From the NCBI RefSeq assembly GCF_003790525.1, contig NZ_CP033635.1: a stretch of DNA of 64,000 bases; one strand, 5' to 3'. Made by a program: the position numbers and the translations under genes. Source of the DNA: Escherichia coli (GTDB lineage Bacteria; Pseudomonadota; Gammaproteobacteria; Enterobacterales; Enterobacteriaceae). Shown here in pieces: positions 13,955 to 38,464 of the stretch; the stretch's first letter is position 1; every line of letters begins with the position of its first letter. Under the pieces are notes generated by a model. It was given only the letters and a program-made list of their open reading frames with translations. It made no database searches and had not been told where the DNA came from.

Positions 13955-15270
13955 GTCAGGCTAAATCGAACAAGATGGGCGTCGTTCAGTTAACCATACT
14001 GACGATGGTCAACATGATGGGCTCCGGTATCATCATGCTGCCGACAAAGCTTGCCGAAGTTGGGACAATCTCAATTATCTCCTGGCTGGTGACAGCCGTA
14101 GGCTCAATGGCACTGGCGTGGGCATTCGCAAAATGCGGTATGTTCAGCCGTAAGGCAGGTGGTATGGGCGGTTATGCGGAGTATGCTTTCGGTAAATCCG
14201 GTAACTTTATGGCGAACTACACCTACGGTGTCTCGCTGCTGATTGCTAACGTCGCGATTGCTATTTCGGCGGTTGGTTACGGCACCGAACTGCTCGGCGC
14301 GAGTTTGTCGCCAGTGCAGATTGGTCTTGCGACCATCGGGGTGCTGTGGATTTGTACCGTGGCTAACTTCGGTGGTGCGCGCATTACCGGGCAAATCAGT
14401 AGCATTACTGTGTGGGGGGTAATCATTCCGGTCGTCGGTCTGTGCATTATCGGCTGGTTCTGGTTTAGCCCGACGCTGTACGCTAACTCATGGAACCCTC
14501 ATCATGTACCGTTCTTTAGCGCTGTAGGTTCCTCCATCGCCATGACGTTGTGGGCTTTCCTCGGTCTGGAGTCTGCCTGTGCCAACGCCGAAGTAGTGGA
14601 AAACCCGGAACGTAACGTGCCAATAGCAGTCCTTGGCGGTACGTTAGGTGCGGCAGTGATTTATATCGTCTCCACCAACGTGATTGCCGGGATTGTGCCC
14701 AATATGGAGCTGGCAAATTCAACGGCACCATTTGGCCTGGCCTTCGCACAGATGTTCACACCAGAAGTGGGTAAAGTCATTATGGCGCTGATGGTGATGT
14801 CCTGCTGCGGTTCACTGCTTGGCTGGCAGTTCACCATTGCCCAGGTGTTTAAATCTTCATCTGATGAAGGCTACTTCCCTAAAATTTTCTCCCGTGTAAC
14901 CAAAGTGGATGCACCGGTTCAGGGAATGTTGATCATTGTGATTATTCAGAGTGGATTGGCACTGATGACCATTAGCCCGTCACTGAACAGCCAGTTCAAC
15001 GTGCTGGTTAACCTGGCCGTGGTGACCAATATCATCCCGTATATTCTGTCGATGGCAGCATTAGTTATTATTCAGCAGGTCGCCAATGTGCCACCGTCAA
15101 AAGCGAAAGTAGCAAACTTTGTTGCCTTTGTTGGTGCGATGTACAGTTTCTATGCGCTGTACTCATCCGGGGAAGAAGCCATGCTGTACGGTTCCATCGT
15201 GACCTTCCTTGGTTGGACACTGTATGGTCTGGTATCTCCACGCTTTGAACTGAAAAATAAACACGGTTAA
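13951..15270 (+). CDS. potE: Putrescine:ornithine antiporter
   Basis: 439 aa from MSQAKSNKMGVVQLT; APC-family transporter; ATGA overlap with speF. Confidence 0.95.
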   Translation: MSQAKSNKMGVVQLTILTMVNMMGSGIIMLPTKLAEVGTISIISWLVTAVGSMALAWAFAKCGMFSRKAGGMGGYAEYAFGKSGNFMANYTYGVSLLIANVAIAISAVGYGTELLGASLSPVQIGLATIGVLWICTVANFGGARITGQISSITVWGVIIPVVGLCIIGWFWFSPTLYANSWNPHHVPFFSAVGSSIAMTLWAFLGLESACANAEVVENPERNVPIAVLGGTLGAAVIYIVSTNVIAGIVPNMELANSTAPFGLAFAQMFTPEVGKVIMALMVMSCCGSLLGWQFTIAQVFKSSSDEGYFPKIFSRVTKVDAPVQGMLIIVIIQSGLALMTISPSLNSQFNVLVNLAVVTNIIPYILSMAALVIIQQVANVPPSKAKVANFVAFVGAMYSFYALYSSGEEAMLYGSIVTFLGWTLYGLVSPRFELKNKHG

Positions 15271-19404: not shown

Positions 19405-20169
19405 ATGAAATTGAATATCCGCGCGCAAACTGCACAAAACCAGCACAATAATTCTCCCATCGTTCTTGTCCATGGTCTGTTTGGCAGCCTCGACAACCTT
19501 GGCGTACTGGCTCGCGATCTGGTAAACGATCACAATATCATCCAGGTTGATATGCGTAACCACGGTCTTTCACCGAGAGATCCGGTAATGAATTACCCGG
19601 CGATGGCGCAGGATCTTGTTGATACCCTGGATGCACAGCAGATCGACAAAGCAACATTTATCGGTCACTCCATGGGCGGTAAAGCGGTAATGGCTCTTAC
19701 TGCACTAGCCCCCGATCGCATTGACAAGCTGGTGGCGATTGATATTGCGCCGGTCGACTATCACGTACGCCGTCATGATGAGATTTTCGCGGCCATCAAC
19801 GCAGTCAGTGAATCAGACGCACAAACACGCCAGCAAGCAGCGGCAATAATGCGCCAGCATCTTAATGAAGAAGGGGTGATTCAGTTTCTGTTAAAATCTT
19901 TTGTTGACGGGGAGTGGCGCTTTAACGTGCCAGTATTGTGGGATCAGTATCCGCATATTGTGGGTTGGGAGAAAATCCCGGCATGGGATCATCCTACCCT
20001 GTTTATCCCTGGCGGCAATTCTCCGTATGTTAGCGAGCAGTACCGTGATGATTTACTGGCACAATTTCCACAGGCTCGGGCGCATGTGATTGCAGGCGCG
20101 GGTCACTGGGTCCATGCTGAAAAACCGGATGCGGTATTACGCGCTATCCGTCGCTATCTCAATGATTAA
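19405..20169 (+). CDS. ybfF: Alpha/beta-hydrolase esterase YbfF
   Basis: 254 aa; nucleophile elbow GHSMGG. Confidence 0.9.
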   Translation: MKLNIRAQTAQNQHNNSPIVLVHGLFGSLDNLGVLARDLVNDHNIIQVDMRNHGLSPRDPVMNYPAMAQDLVDTLDAQQIDKATFIGHSMGGKAVMALTALAPDRIDKLVAIDIAPVDYHVRRHDEIFAAINAVSESDAQTRQQAAAIMRQHLNEEGVIQFLLKSFVDGEWRFNVPVLWDQYPHIVGWEKIPAWDHPTLFIPGGNSPYVSEQYRDDLLAQFPQARAHVIAGAGHWVHAEKPDAVLRAIRRYLND

Positions 20170-32754: not shown

Positions 32755-34419
32755 ATGTGTTCAATTTTTGGCGTATTCGATATCAAAACAGACGCAGTTG
32801 AGCTGCGGAAGAAAGCCCTCGAGCTGTCACGCCTGATGCGTCATCGTGGCCCGGACTGGTCCGGTATTTATGCCAGCGATAACGCCATTCTCGCTCACGA
32901 ACGTCTGTCAATTGTTGACGTTAACGCAGGGGCGCAACCTCTCTACAACCAACAAAAAACCCACGTACTGGCGGTAAACGGTGAAATCTACAACCACCAG
33001 GCACTGCGCGCCGAATATGGCGATCGTTATCAGTTCCAGACCGGATCTGACTGCGAAGTGATCCTCGCGCTGTATCAGGAAAAAGGGCCGGAATTTCTTG
33101 ACGACTTGCAGGGCATGTTTGCCTTTGCCCTGTACGACAGCGAAAAAGATGCCTACCTGATTGGTCGCGACCATCTGGGGATCATCCCACTGTATATGGG
33201 CTATGACGAACATGGTCAGCTGTATGTGGCCTCAGAAATGAAAGCCCTGGTGCCGGTATGCCGCACGATTAAAGAGTTCCCGGCGGGGAGCTATTTGTGG
33301 AGTCAGGACGGCGAAATCCGTTCTTATTATCATCGCGACTGGTTCGACTACGATGCGGTGAAAGATAACGTGACCGACAAAAACGAGCTGCGTCAGGCAC
33401 TGGAAGATTCCGTTAAAAGCCATCTGATGTCTGATGTGCCTTACGGTGTGCTGCTATCTGGTGGCCTGGATTCCTCAATCATTTCCGCTATCACCAAGAA
33501 ATACGCCGCCCGTCGCGTGGAAGATCAGGAACGCTCTGAAGCCTGGTGGCCGCAGCTGCACTCCTTTGCTGTAGGTCTGCCGGGTTCACCGGATCTGAAG
33601 GCAGCCCAGGAAGTGGCAAACCATCTGGGCACTGTGCATCATGAAATTCACTTCACTGTACAGGAAGGTCTGGACGCCATCCGCGACGTGATTTACCACA
33701 TCGAAACCTATGACGTGACGACAATCCGCGCTTCAACACCGATGTATTTAATGTCGCGTAAGATCAAGGCGATGGGCATTAAAATGGTGCTGTCCGGTGA
33801 AGGATCTGATGAAGTGTTTGGCGGTTATCTTTACTTCCACAAAGCGCCGAATGCCAAAGAACTGCATGAAGAGACGGTGCGTAAACTGCTGGCCCTGCAT
33901 ATGTATGACTGCGCGCGTGCCAACAAAGCGATGTCAGCCTGGGGCGTGGAAGCACGCGTTCCGTTCCTCGACAAAAAATTCCTCGACGTGGCGATGCGCA
34001 TTAACCCACAGGATAAAATGTGCGGTAACGGCAAAATGGAAAAACACATCCTGCGTGAATGTTTTGAAGCGTATCTGCCCGCAAGCGTGGCCTGGCGGCA
34101 GAAAGAGCAGTTCTCCGATGGCGTCGGTTACAGTTGGATCGACACCCTGAAAGAAGTGGCGGCGCAGCAGGTTTCTGATCAACAGCTGGAAACTGCCCGC
34201 TTCCGCTTCCCGTACAACACACCGACCTCAAAAGAAGCGTATCTGTACCGGGAGATCTTTGAAGAACTGTTCCCGCTTCCGAGCGCCGCTGAGTGCGTGC
34301 CGGGCGGTCCTTCCGTCGCGTGTTCTTCCGCTAAAGCGATTGAGTGGGATGAAGCGTTCAAGAAAATGGACGATCCGTCTGGTCGCGCGGTTGGTGTTCA
34401 CCAGTCGGCATATAAATAA
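32755..34419 (+). CDS. asnB: Asparagine synthetase B (glutamine-hydrolysing)
   Basis: 554 aa from MCSIFGVFD (N-terminal Cys nucleophile); PP-loop SGGLDSS; ORF-track start 32674 is an extension. Confidence 0.95.
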   Translation: MCSIFGVFDIKTDAVELRKKALELSRLMRHRGPDWSGIYASDNAILAHERLSIVDVNAGAQPLYNQQKTHVLAVNGEIYNHQALRAEYGDRYQFQTGSDCEVILALYQEKGPEFLDDLQGMFAFALYDSEKDAYLIGRDHLGIIPLYMGYDEHGQLYVASEMKALVPVCRTIKEFPAGSYLWSQDGEIRSYYHRDWFDYDAVKDNVTDKNELRQALEDSVKSHLMSDVPYGVLLSGGLDSSIISAITKKYAARRVEDQERSEAWWPQLHSFAVGLPGSPDLKAAQEVANHLGTVHHEIHFTVQEGLDAIRDVIYHIETYDVTTIRASTPMYLMSRKIKAMGIKMVLSGEGSDEVFGGYLYFHKAPNAKELHEETVRKLLALHMYDCARANKAMSAWGVEARVPFLDKKFLDVAMRINPQDKMCGNGKMEKHILRECFEAYLPASVAWRQKEQFSDGVGYSWIDTLKEVAAQQVSDQQLETARFRFPYNTPTSKEAYLYREIFEELFPLPSAAECVPGGPSVACSSAKAIEWDEAFKKMDDPSGRAVGVHQSAYK

Positions 34420-34430
34420 GACGTATAATA

Positions 34431-34457
34431 TTGCCCCGGAGAAATCCGGGGCAATTT
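34431..34457 (+). terminator. asnB terminator
   Basis: GCCCCGGA-gaaa-TCCGGGGC followed by AATTT. Confidence 0.6.
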
Positions 34458-34730
34458 CAGTTACTGGGGCGCTTGTTGATTCTGATATGCAGTAAGGAAA
34501 TGTTCCGGGTTTGCCACATCGCTGTTTGACAACTCATTACTGTAGGCCAGTATTTCATAGATTAATTTCCCACCACTATTGTTGAATTCCGAATTTCATC
34601 CTGTATGACAAAAGAATGGCTGTAGGGTGGGGAAAAAACACAAAGTAAACAATAATTGACGAATATAGCGCCACGCTGTTCGCAACCTAACCAAACAGTC
34701 ACTTTCGAGCAATTTTCCTTGAAAAAGAGG

Positions 34731-34760
34731 TTGACGCTGCAAGGCTCTATACGCATAATG
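34731..34760 (+). promoter_or_regulatory. Promoter of the tRNA operon (TTGACG -35, CATAAT -10, GC-rich discriminator)
   Basis: TTGACGctgcaaggctctatacgCATAATgcgcccc about 40 bp upstream of first tRNA; stringent-type discriminator. Confidence 0.6.
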
Positions 34761-34799
34761 CGCCCCGCAACGCCGATAAGGTATCGCGAAAAAAAAGAT

Positions 34800-34876
34800 G
34801 GCTACGTAGCTCAGTTGGTTAGAGCACATCACTCATAATGATGGGGTCACAGGTTCGAATCCCGTCGTAGCCACCA
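34800..34876 (+). tRNA. metT: tRNA-Met (elongator, CAU)
   Basis: GGCTACGTAGCTCAGTTGGTTAGAGC...CTCATAA...GGTTCGAATCC...CCA; cloverleaf readable. Confidence 0.95.
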
Positions 34877-34884
34877 TCTTTTTT

Positions 34885-34969
34885 GCGGGAGTGGCGAAAT
34901 TGGTAGACGCACCAGATTTAGGTTCTGGCGCCGCAAGGTGTGCGAGTTCAAGTCTCGCCTCCCGCACCA
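34885..34969 (+). tRNA. leuW: tRNA-Leu (UAG), long variable arm
   Basis: GCGGGAGTGGCGAAATTGGTAGACGC...GATTTAGGTTC...CCA, 85 nt. Confidence 0.9.
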
Positions 34970-34992
34970 TTCACCAGAAAGCGTTGTACGGA

Positions 34993-35067
34993 TGGGGTAT
35001 CGCCAAGCGGTAAGGCACCGGTTTTTGATACCGGCATTCCCTGGTTCGAATCCAGGTACCCCAGCCA
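34993..35067 (+). tRNA. glnU: tRNA-Gln (UUG)
   Basis: TGGGGTATCGCCAAGCGGTAAGGCACCGGTTTTTGATACCGG...CCA. Confidence 0.9.
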
Positions 35068-35101
35068 TCTTCTTCGAGTAAGCGGTTCACCGCCCGGTTA
35101 T

Positions 35102-35176
35102 TGGGGTATCGCCAAGCGGTAAGGCACCGGTTTTTGATACCGGCATTCCCTGGTTCGAATCCAGGTACCCCAGCCA
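35102..35176 (+). tRNA. glnW: tRNA-Gln (UUG), second copy
   Basis: Identical to the preceding tRNA-Gln(UUG). Confidence 0.9.
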
Positions 35177-35191
35177 TCGAAGAAACAATCT

Positions 35192-35268
35192 GGCTACGTA
35201 GCTCAGTTGGTTAGAGCACATCACTCATAATGATGGGGTCACAGGTTCGAATCCCGTCGTAGCCACCA
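35192..35268 (+). tRNA. metU: tRNA-Met (elongator, CAU), second copy
   Basis: Identical to metT copy. Confidence 0.95.
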
Positions 35269-35316
35269 AATTCTGAATGTGTCGAATATGTTCGGCAAAT
35301 TCAAAAACCAATTTGT

Positions 35317-35391
35317 TGGGGTATCGCCAAGCGGTAAGGCACCGGATTCTGATTCCGGCATTCCGAGGTTCGAATCCTCGTACCCCAGCCA
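35317..35391 (+). tRNA. glnV: tRNA-Gln (CUG)
   Basis: TGGGGTATCGCCAAGCGGTAAGGCACCGGATTCTGATTCCGG...CCA; anticodon CTG. Confidence 0.9.
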
Positions 35392-35428
35392 ATTTATTCA
35401 AGACACTTACCTTGTAAGTGCACCCAGT

Positions 35429-35503
35429 TGGGGTATCGCCAAGCGGTAAGGCACCGGATTCTGATTCCGGCATTCCGAGGTTCGAATCCTCGTACCCCAG
35501 CCA
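35429..35503 (+). tRNA. glnX: tRNA-Gln (CUG), second copy
   Basis: Identical to glnV copy. Confidence 0.9.
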
Positions 35504-35508
35504 CATTA

Positions 35509-35540
35509 AAAAAGCTCGCTTCGGCGAGCTTTTTGCTTTT
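35509..35540 (+). terminator. tRNA operon terminator
   Basis: AAAGCTCGC-ttcg-GCGAGCTTTTTGCTTTT. Confidence 0.8.
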
Positions 35541-35641
35541 CTGCGTATATTCAATGTCGAATGCGATGTTGATACAGCTAATTTGAATTTGGCCCACGGT
35601 TCAGGGCAAACCAGCCTGGAAGCACACTCAGGCGCGGTTTT

Positions 35642-35681
35642 CCCCCTCACCCTAACCCTCACCCGAGGGGCGAGGGGACCG
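35642..35681. repeat. GC-rich imperfect palindrome (CCCTCACCC x2 ... GAGGGGCGAGGGG), likely dispersed-repeat family member at ubiF 3' end
   Basis: CCCCCTCACCCTAACCCTCACCCGAGGGGCGAGGGGACCG read directly; family membership not verified. Confidence 0.4.
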
Positions 35682-35718
35682 TCCGCACGCTTTTGTAGCT
35701 TTGGTATCAACCGTTACG

Positions 35719-36894
35719 CTACAACCCTAACGCATATTTCAGCGCCTGACGTTTCAACACGCCAGCACGCTCCGCCGCCATTAATCCGAGATTACGCATA
35801 AAACGCAGTGGTGGCAGATTATTGCTGAATCCGGCATAAAACAGATCCATACCGCTTTGCATAATGAAGTTATCCGCCATGCGCCGCATCTGGTAACGCT
35901 TGAGCACAGGATAACTGGCCCACGCTTCGCCGTAGCTGCGGGCGTTCACCAGAACGTCAATCAGGGCATCGACATCACGATAACCAAGATTCACCCCCTG
36001 CCCCGCCAGCGGATGGATGGTATGCGCGGCATCTCCCACCAGTGCCAATCCCGGCTGAACATACTGCAACGCATGGCGACGTGTCAGCGGAAACGCCCCC
36101 GCGGCAAGCGGTGTCACGTAACCCAGACGCGACGGGAAATGCTTCGCGATTTCCGCCTGTAGCTGCGCCATATTCATATTCTGCAACTGGCGAATGCGCG
36201 CCGGAGAGTCATACCACACCAGCGATGCCCAGTTATCAAACAACGGCAGAAACGCACGCGGTCCGTCCGGGGTAAATTGCTGCCAGGTGCTATCGCCGGG
36301 ATCGTTCTCGCACTGTACGCTAATCAACATACACGACTGTGCATACTGCCAGGCATGAACGCCAATTCCCGCCATCTGCCGCACCTGCGAATTTGCGCCG
36401 TCGGCACCAATCACCAGCTTCGCGCGGATCGTTTCACCGCCCTTCAGTTCCAGCTCCTGAAGATCATTATGGCGATGCAGCGCAATCAGCGAGCCTGGCA
36501 CACGTAACGTTACTTTCGGATGCGCTTCCAGCGCCTGCCACAGCGCCTGTTGCAGGACAGTGTTTTCCACCATGTAGCCAAGCAACGGTAGCTTAAGTTC
36601 AGCGGCGTCAAACACCACATGCGCCGTTTCCCACTCCCACGTTTCCAGTCTGCGGTAAGGATGGCAACGCATAGCCTGTACTGCATCCCAGACCCCTAAC
36701 CCTTTAAGCAATGATACCGAAGCCGCACTAATCGCCGAGATCCGCACGTCCGGCTGGCTGTCAGCGACAAACGGTGCAGGTTGGGCATGTTCGATAACCA
36801 TTACCGAAAATCCGTGCTGAGCCAGTCCCAGCGCCAGTGCGCCGCCGACCATTCCTCCGCCGACAATGGCAATTTCCGTTGGTTGATTTGTCAT
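35719..36894 (-). CDS. ubiF: 2-octaprenyl-3-methyl-6-methoxy-1,4-benzoquinol hydroxylase (FAD monooxygenase)
   Basis: 391 aa from ATG at 36892..36894 (MTNQPTEIAIVGGGMVGG, FAD GxGxxG); ORF-track start is an upstream alternative start. Confidence 0.9.
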   Translation of the reverse strand: MTNQPTEIAIVGGGMVGGALALGLAQHGFSVMVIEHAQPAPFVADSQPDVRISAISAASVSLLKGLGVWDAVQAMRCHPYRRLETWEWETAHVVFDAAELKLPLLGYMVENTVLQQALWQALEAHPKVTLRVPGSLIALHRHNDLQELELKGGETIRAKLVIGADGANSQVRQMAGIGVHAWQYAQSCMLISVQCENDPGDSTWQQFTPDGPRAFLPLFDNWASLVWYDSPARIRQLQNMNMAQLQAEIAKHFPSRLGYVTPLAAGAFPLTRRHALQYVQPGLALVGDAAHTIHPLAGQGVNLGYRDVDALIDVLVNARSYGEAWASYPVLKRYQMRRMADNFIMQSGMDLFYAGFSNNLPPLRFMRNLGLMAAERAGVLKRQALKYALGL

Positions 36895-37039
36895 GGTCAA
36901 TCATCCTGTTAGCAATATGCTTTAAGTTTACAGGATTTTTACCCCCAAGGGCTGATAACGCTCATACTGGTCACAACGGCAGCAAAGCATTACACTATGC
37001 GCCCTGCATTCCTGGCTACTATTTCGCAAGAGCAAGTCG

Positions 37040-38464
37040 ATGACCAAAAAACTCCATATTAAAACCTGGGGCTGTCAGATGAACGAGTACGATTCATCGA
37101 AGATGGCCGATCTGCTGGATGCCACCCACGGCTATCAACTGACCGATGTGGCGGAAGAAGCGGATGTGCTGCTGCTGAACACCTGCTCAATCCGCGAGAA
37201 GGCTCAGGAAAAAGTCTTCCATCAGTTGGGTCGCTGGAAACTGTTAAAAGAGAAGAATCCAGACCTGATTATCGGCGTCGGCGGCTGCGTGGCATCGCAA
37301 GAAGGCGAGCACATTCGCCAGCGCGCCCACTATGTCGATATTATTTTTGGGCCGCAAACGCTGCACCGTCTGCCGGAGATGATCAACTCCGTGCGCGGCG
37401 ACCGCAGCCCGGTTGTAGATATCAGCTTCCCGGAAATCGAGAAGTTTGACCGTCTGCCGGAACCGCGCGCCGAAGGGCCGACCGCGTTTGTCTCCATCAT
37501 GGAAGGCTGCAATAAATATTGCACCTACTGCGTAGTGCCTTACACCCGTGGTGAAGAGGTAAGCCGTCCGTCCGACGATATTCTGTTTGAAATTGCCCAG
37601 CTTGCGGCTCAGGGCGTGCGTGAAGTCAACCTGCTCGGTCAGAACGTGAACGCCTGGCGTGGTGAGAACTACGACGGCACCACCGGATCGTTTGCCGACC
37701 TGCTGCGTCTGGTTGCGGCGATCGACGGGATCGATCGTATTCGCTTTACCACCAGCCATCCGATCGAATTCACCGACGATATCATCGAAGTGTACCGCGA
37801 CACGCCGGAGCTGGTGAGTTTCCTGCATCTGCCGGTACAGAGCGGTTCCGATCGCATTCTGAACCTGATGGGACGTACCCATACAGCGCTGGAGTACAAA
37901 GCGATCATCCGTAAACTGCGTGCGGCGCGTCCGGATATTCAGATCAGTTCTGACTTCATCGTTGGCTTCCCTGGCGAAACCACCGAAGACTTCGAGAAAA
38001 CGATGAAGCTGATTGCCGACGTCAATTTCGACATGAGCTACAGCTTTATCTTCTCTGCACGTCCGGGTACGCCAGCCGCCGATATGGTTGATGATGTTCC
38101 GGAAGAAGAGAAGAAGCAGCGTCTGTATATTCTGCAAGAACGTATTAATCAGCAAGCGATGGCATGGAGCCGCCGGATGCTCGGCACCACCCAGCGTATT
38201 CTGGTAGAAGGTACATCGCGTAAGAGCATCATGGAGCTTTCCGGTCGCACTGAAAATAACCGCGTGGTCAACTTTGAAGGCACGCCAGATATGATCGGTA
38301 AATTCGTCGATGTAGAAATTACCGACGTCTACCCGAACTCTCTGCGCGGTAAAGTGGTGCGTACTGAAGATGAAATGGGTCTGCGCGTGGCAGAAACGCC
38401 GGAATCGGTGATTGCCCGTACCCGCAAAGAAAACGACCTTGGCGTGGGTTATTATCAGCCGTAA
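37040..38464 (+). CDS. miaB: tRNA-i6A37 methylthiotransferase MiaB (radical SAM)
   Basis: 474 aa; CNKYCTYC radical-SAM cysteine motif; N-terminal MTTase cysteines. Confidence 0.95.

Follow-up and report, generated by a model that had tools for sequence, protein, structure and literature searches.

A canonical seven-tRNA metT operon between asnB and ubiF in Escherichia coli, with strain-variable spacers and glutamine tRNA copy number

Seven tRNA genes on one strand

The stretch of DNA analysed here (the window) comprises 64,000 nucleotides of an Escherichia coli contig (NZ_CP033635.1), and over its whole length ARAGORN finds exactly seven tRNA genes, all on the plus strand and all within positions 34800-35503. 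ARAGORN and Rfam give the same order on that strand, Met(CAU)-Leu(UAG)-Gln(UUG)-Gln(UUG)-Met(CAU)-Gln(CUG)-Gln(CUG). In Rfam, all seven genes match the tRNA family RF00005 with 57.6-71.1 bits, where the gathering score is 29. The Rfam ends lie 3 nt short of the ARAGORN ends, the encoded CCA being absent from the Rfam model. A seven-tRNA operon with these anticodons had been described in an initial annotation made from the sequence by eye; ARAGORN, which it had named as a suitable check, returns the same seven tRNAs and anticodons, and Rfam agrees on all seven.

The first gene, metT (34800-34876), specifies an elongator tRNA-Met(CAU) of 77 nt with its CCA encoded (Rfam 71.1 bits) and corresponds to MG1655 metT (b0673), and the second, leuW (34885-34969), specifies a tRNA-Leu(UAG) of 85 nt (57.6 bits) and corresponds to MG1655 leuW (b0672). 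They are followed by two tRNA-Gln(UUG) genes of 75 nt each, glnU (34993-35067) and glnW (35102-35176), by a second elongator tRNA-Met(CAU) gene of 77 nt, metU (35192-35268), and by two tRNA-Gln(CUG) genes of 75 nt each, glnV (35317-35391) and glnX (35429-35503), each of the five being found by both programs and corresponding to the MG1655 gene of that name. The intergenic spacers measure, in order, 8, 23, 34, 15, 48 and 37 nt.

Apart from leuW, the genes fall into pairs of identical copies, as had been noticed at the outset: metT and metU agree at 77 of 77 nucleotides, and identity is likewise 100% between glnU and glnW and between glnV and glnX. The two glutamine species differ from each other at seven positions, namely the wobble base and paired changes in the anticodon stem and the T stem, so that six of the seven differences are compensatory stem changes. 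The spacers share no mutual similarity, and the repeated sequence stops at the tRNA borders.

Identity of the locus

The window corresponds to positions 731451-667452, on the reverse strand, of the E. coli SMS-3-5 chromosome (NC_010498.1), from which it differs by two SNPs in 64 kb. One of these, at 13960, has G in the window and A in SMS-3-5 and lies near the start of potE, in the overlap with speF; the other, at 19893, has A in the window and G in SMS-3-5 and lies inside ybfF. The 1.5 kb around the operon are 100% identical to SMS-3-5 and to several further strains. In SMS-3-5, RefSeq annotates seven tRNAs between asnB and ubiF, and when its annotation is mapped to the window, the upstream neighbour, outside the operon, is asnB (asparagine synthase B; 32755-34419, plus strand), and the downstream neighbour is ubiF (35719-36894, minus strand), which is convergent with the operon and stands at the same place in K-12 and O157. 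The neighbourhood nagD-asnB-operon-ubiF-miaB is common to the window, K-12 and O157.

All seven tRNAs are base-for-base identical to their MG1655 counterparts. The tRNA sequences are moreover invariant among the window, K-12, O157:H7 and EC08, every difference between these strains falling in the spacers. With the 1.5-kb sequence as a query, 5424 of 5426 complete E. coli genomes give a match to the locus. Five of the places matched by this query lie on plasmid-typed records, as does one place for each of the two Gln spacer queries described further below. In another strain, IH5, the locus breaks off behind a 74-nt tRNA-Met and is followed by purH-purD, which reflects either an operon-internal rearrangement breakpoint or an assembly error.

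Taken together, the genes, their order and their surroundings identify the locus as the E. coli metT operon in its canonical form, with seven tRNAs, one sigma-70 promoter and one terminator, a reading against which no result speaks and to which we assign a probability of about 98%. The metT operon has long been known, and its transcript, processing and essentiality have been published; the locus is thus an ordinary one, and not a discovery.

Promoter, discriminator and leader

Upstream of metT, a sigma-70 promoter (34731-34759, plus strand) consists of a -35 hexamer TTGACG (34731-34736), a 17-nt spacer and a -10 hexamer CATAAT (34754-34759), with 10 of 12 consensus matches. It is followed by the G+C-rich discriminator GCGCCCCGC (34760-34768), and transcription probably starts at about 34766-34769. 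The leader of about 33 nt (34767-34799) begins with some 16 highly conserved nucleotides (GCAACGCCGATAAGG) and is variable towards its 3' end, where an A run closes it. Upstream of the -35 hexamer, the sequence also contains an A/T-rich tract, GAGCAATTTTCCTTGAAAAAGAGG (34708-34729), which could act in the manner of an UP element. The promoter region as a whole is 100% identical among the window, K-12, O157 and EC08.

Support for this promoter rests on its conservation and on the K-12 literature, because a consensus match alone is not above chance: the promoter scan reports two sites, against 2.0 expected in shuffles. For the conservation, the metT-leuW junction was located in 120 species-level Enterobacterales genomes and the 110 nt upstream were aligned, giving 113 distinct sequences. 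Among these, the -35 hexamer, the -10 hexamer and the discriminator are each at least 90% conserved whereas the 17-nt spacer between the hexamers varies, and the discriminator GCGCCCCGC is invariant. A GAAAAA run at 34721-34726 and the first part of the leader, 34767-34782 (GCAACGCCGATAAGG), are also at least 90% conserved, while the remainder of the leader varies.

The discriminator is the same as that of MG1655 tyrT, and the motif CCGATAAGG stands at the same place in the early leaders of tyrT and of the metT operon. The tyrT promoter is the classic stringently controlled tRNA promoter; since it shares this discriminator, "stringent-type", the term originally applied to the promoter found here, is a fair label at the level of sequence, where the conserved hexamers and the G+C-rich discriminator bear it out. 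Down-regulation of the operon by ppGpp and DksA when amino acids run short would be the expectation from a discriminator of this type.

Does the conserved early leader have a role of its own? Segment 34767-34782 might be a discrete cis-acting element, involved in the regulation of transcription or in the processing of the precursor, beyond its part in the promoter as initially transcribed sequence; we regard this as unlikely, and as of modest interest. A broader proposal is that the operon does more than supply tRNAs, and that a transcribed part outside them, such as the conserved segment of the 5' leader, an internal spacer or the terminator-containing 3' trailer, acts independently, perhaps as a signal in regulation or processing or as a sponge for sRNAs, functions of this kind having been reported for other tRNA precursors. 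The contrast between the conserved segment 34767-34782 and the varying sequence of the remaining leader and of the -35/-10 spacer in the 113 sequences speaks for such a function, as does the occurrence of CCGATAAGG in the tyrT leader. However, conservation just past the start can be explained by promoter function, through the discriminator and the initially transcribed sequence, the internal spacers vary among E. coli strains, and no Rfam family scores above threshold on the spacers or the trailer. We know of no experiment that assigns a regulatory or sponge role to the metT operon, and on balance consider an additional function of this kind improbable.

Terminator and flanking intergenic segments

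Past glnX lies a Rho-independent terminator (35509-35544, plus strand), made of a hairpin at 35509-35534 with an 11-bp stem (AAAAAGCTCGC/GCGAGCTTTTT) and a TTCG loop, and of a T-rich tail. The hairpin folds with -17.9 kcal/mol (z = -3.59), its sequence is identical among the window, K-12, O157 and ETEC4067, and in 88 of 104 related loci the last tRNA is likewise succeeded by a hairpin and a T run. The terminator scan, the folding energy and the related loci thus sustain the original description of a strong terminator, and the interval 34731-35540, within which the operon was first delimited, has the -35 hexamer and the terminator tail as its exact limits. Between the seven genes, the promoter and terminator scan reports no promoter-like or terminator-like site. 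An A run on the 5' side and the T run on the 3' side make the terminator roughly symmetrical, and the hairpin could also stop transcription of the convergent ubiF on the opposite strand.

A permissive Rfam scan of 33000-37500 for other RNA families returned sub-threshold matches only. Among them, Plastid-ycf2 matches on the antisense of the tRNAs, whose 22-32 bits stay below a gathering score of 65.7, were taken as chance, and so were partial matches of rsmX and istR (E = 0.23 and 0.49), which cover the terminator hairpin only.

Between the terminator and the ubiF stop codon, the 145 bp at 35572-35716 represent a rare allele, present at full length in only 37 of 5426 complete E. coli genomes; in K-12, O157 and ETEC4067 its place is taken by a REP-type palindrome that is shorter. 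The G+C-rich core of the 145-bp segment (35631-35682) has a counterpart in the fabI-ycjD spacer of MG1655, to which it is 89% identical over 54 nt, and belongs to a dispersed intergenic repeat family found at a median of 10 places per genome. In view of the match to the fabI-ycjD copy, we take this core to be probably boxC. A BoxC family of about 56 bp, with 22-32 copies, exists in E. coli (PMC2267715).

On the other side of the operon, some strains, such as EC08, have 432 bp inserted downstream of asnB and ahead of the metT promoter, at a point equivalent to 34532/34533 of the window. It contains, on the opposite strand, an ORF for a hypothetical protein of 145 aa (WP_000943484.1) that matches no Pfam family. 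This insertion is absent from the window, K-12 and O157.

Open reading frames across the operon

ORFs of 40-161 aa, with start codons, span the operon on both strands. They include ORFs at 34847-35068 and 34971-35177 on the minus strand, one of 161 aa at 35225-35710 on the minus strand, and one of 127 aa at 35418-35801 on the plus strand. Could one or more of them, for example the last two, encode a real protein that overlaps the tRNAs? Their start codons, and the fair length of the 161-aa ORF, would favour such a protein. However, none of eight ORFs tested matches a Pfam family, the best E-values (0.15-0.23) falling far short of the cut-offs, and their lengths are unremarkable, since shuffles of the window give comparable open stretches (on average 3.8 reach 161 codons, 16.6 reach 127 and 200 reach 73).

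The K-12 counterparts are also shorter, with 111 aa against 161 and 78 or 103 aa against 127, and the long ORFs change length between strains because their reading runs into the strain-variable spacer. PGAP and RefSeq annotate no CDS across the operon in SMS-3-5, K-12, O157 or the other strains examined, and conservation across the region tracks the tRNA boundaries rather than the ORF frames. A genuine tRNA-overlapping protein is therefore extremely improbable, and the ORFs are best regarded as the artefacts that they had been called initially. The check thus confirms the tRNA annotation, and the overlapping ORFs drop out as gene candidates.

The operon as a potential integration site

Integration often takes place at the 3' ends of tRNA genes, and a phage genome can include a tRNA cluster. 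The cluster might accordingly be, or flank, an integrated mobile element, whether a tRNA-targeting island, a prophage or a phage-borne tRNA array, and the strain-variable segment 35572-35716, with its full length in just 37 of the 5426 genomes, lies just downstream of the operon. However, this segment amounts to about 145 bp only, contains no ORF with a family match and has a small dispersed intergenic repeat as its core, and the surroundings of the operon agree with those in K-12 and O157, with asnB upstream and ubiF 215 bp past glnX.

No integrase is annotated by RefSeq anywhere in the 64-kb window, and outside the operon the window contains no further copy of any 12-mer from the seven tRNAs. 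A search with the 25-nt 3' end of glnX, allowing up to three mismatches, gave matches restricted to the four Gln genes and no att-like repeat. With neither an integrase nor a tRNA fragment of at least 12 nt elsewhere in the window, it follows that no island has been inserted. Since 5424 of 5426 E. coli genomes have the operon, and it extends across Enterobacterales, it is part of the core genome. We hence give the mobile element hardly any credence and retain the metT operon as the reading of the locus, which carries no island in this strain. The original statement that the site is unoccupied stands, and the partial tRNA 3' end repeats for which the downstream sequence was to be inspected are absent from the window.

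Transcription, processing and essentiality

In K-12, northern blots detect a full-length transcript that spans all seven tRNAs and ends at the terminator (PMC2241853). RNase E acts first, detaching the terminator and the distal tRNAs from one another; RNase P then cuts at the mature 5' ends, thereby separating the other tRNAs and removing the leader, and exonucleases complete the tRNA 3' ends (PMC2241853). The genes metT and metU are the sole genes for elongator tRNA-Met (PMC6265465), and every gene in the genome with a CAU(Met), UAG, UUG or CUG(Gln) anticodon lies in this unit, for which essentiality is predicted (PMC11480407).

Since the operon is identical to that of K-12 in its tRNAs, promoter and terminator, we infer that co-transcription and processing by RNase E and RNase P hold in the window strain as well. 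The single sigma-70 promoter with its G+C-rich discriminator (34731-34768) would then produce one transcript of about 770 nt containing the seven tRNAs, ending at the hairpin and T run at 35509-35544. RNase E would first cut off the terminator and free the last tRNAs, after which RNase P would act at each mature 5' end and exonucleases would trim the 3' ends to the encoded CCA. The operon would in this way be the cell's source of elongator tRNA-Met, of both tRNA-Gln species and of tRNA-Leu(UAG), and, as the supplier of these species, would be essential.

Duplications and copy-number variation

The paired genes are probably old tandem duplications, in which the spacers would have diverged and the coding parts would have been held identical by selection, gene conversion, or both. 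Recombination between identical copies may occasionally add or remove a unit. In ETEC4067, for example, exactly one 112-bp Gln(CUG) unit is missing.

The two Gln spacers give a measure of this variation among the 5426 complete E. coli genomes. In a sensitive search, the glnV-glnX spacer is found in 5267 of them, at up to four places per genome (one genome having four), and the 159 genomes with no match may include some in which it is diverged rather than deleted. The glnU-glnW spacer, searched with megablast, is found in 5336 genomes at up to three places per genome, and here too some of the 90 genomes with no match may have a diverged spacer rather than a deletion. A megablast search with the glnV-glnX spacer had matched 3617 of the 5426 genomes; the absence from one third of genomes that this would imply was rejected as a word-size artefact. 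The copy number of the Gln pairs thus varies, with about 2-3% of complete E. coli genomes having no match to the spacer of a pair and a few having extra copies, and this variation, together with that across Enterobacterales, bears on the tRNA gene counts used in models of codon usage or growth rate.

Annotation of the last Gln genes also differs in some strains. In the laboratory strain TUM23331, the last Gln gene has CTA in place of CTG at position 35, which is an anticodon of the amber-suppressor type, and for this reason glnX is left unannotated as a tRNA by PGAP. TUM22153 and USML2 have one annotated Gln only across the glnV-glnX spacer.

Beyond E. coli, among 91 complete Enterobacterales clusters, the seven-gene form is found in 37, and a form of six genes with a single Gln(CUG) in 27. 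Eight of the 91 have a single Gln(UUG), and rarer clusters have one Gln species in three to four copies or an additional Leu; these copy numbers are possibly underestimated, as draft assemblies may collapse identical tandem units. The cluster of Budvicia reads Met-Leu-Gln-Gln-Met-Leu-Gln, that of an Arsenophonus endosymbiont Met-Leu-Lys, and that of Serratia silvae has four Gln(UUG).

Comparison with known systems

As at tRNA sites occupied by islands or prophages, the 3' end of the last tRNA gene, glnX, faces a strain-variable intergenic region. In contrast to such sites, glnX is accompanied neither by an integrase nor by a duplicated 3' end, and what separates it from ubiF is a 145-bp repeat-bearing spacer.

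The tyrT (tyrT-tyrV) promoter resembles that of the metT operon in having GCGCCCCGC directly 3' of the -10 hexamer and CCGATAAGG in the early leader, and differs from it in the -35 and -10 hexamers, the upstream sequence, the tRNA cargo and the locus.

The closest counterpart is the metT operon of MG1655 (K-12), which has the same gene order, anticodons, tRNA bases, promoter region, terminator and flanking genes as the window. The metT-leuW spacer is 8 nt long in the window, compared with 9 nt in K-12 and 10 nt in O157, and the remaining operon spacers differ between the window and K-12 by a 1-nt indel and a few SNPs. The interval from terminator to ubiF in the window exceeds its K-12 counterpart by about 62 bp, a different repeat element replacing the K-12 REP-type palindrome.

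In the orthologous clusters of other Enterobacterales (Citrobacter, Enterobacter, Klebsiella, Yersinia, Photorhabdus, Serratia, Pantoea, Edwardsiella and others), the genes likewise start with Met(CAU)-Leu(UAG)-Gln, and the promoter hexamers, the discriminator and the early leader are kept, whereas the copy number of the Gln and Met genes is variable.
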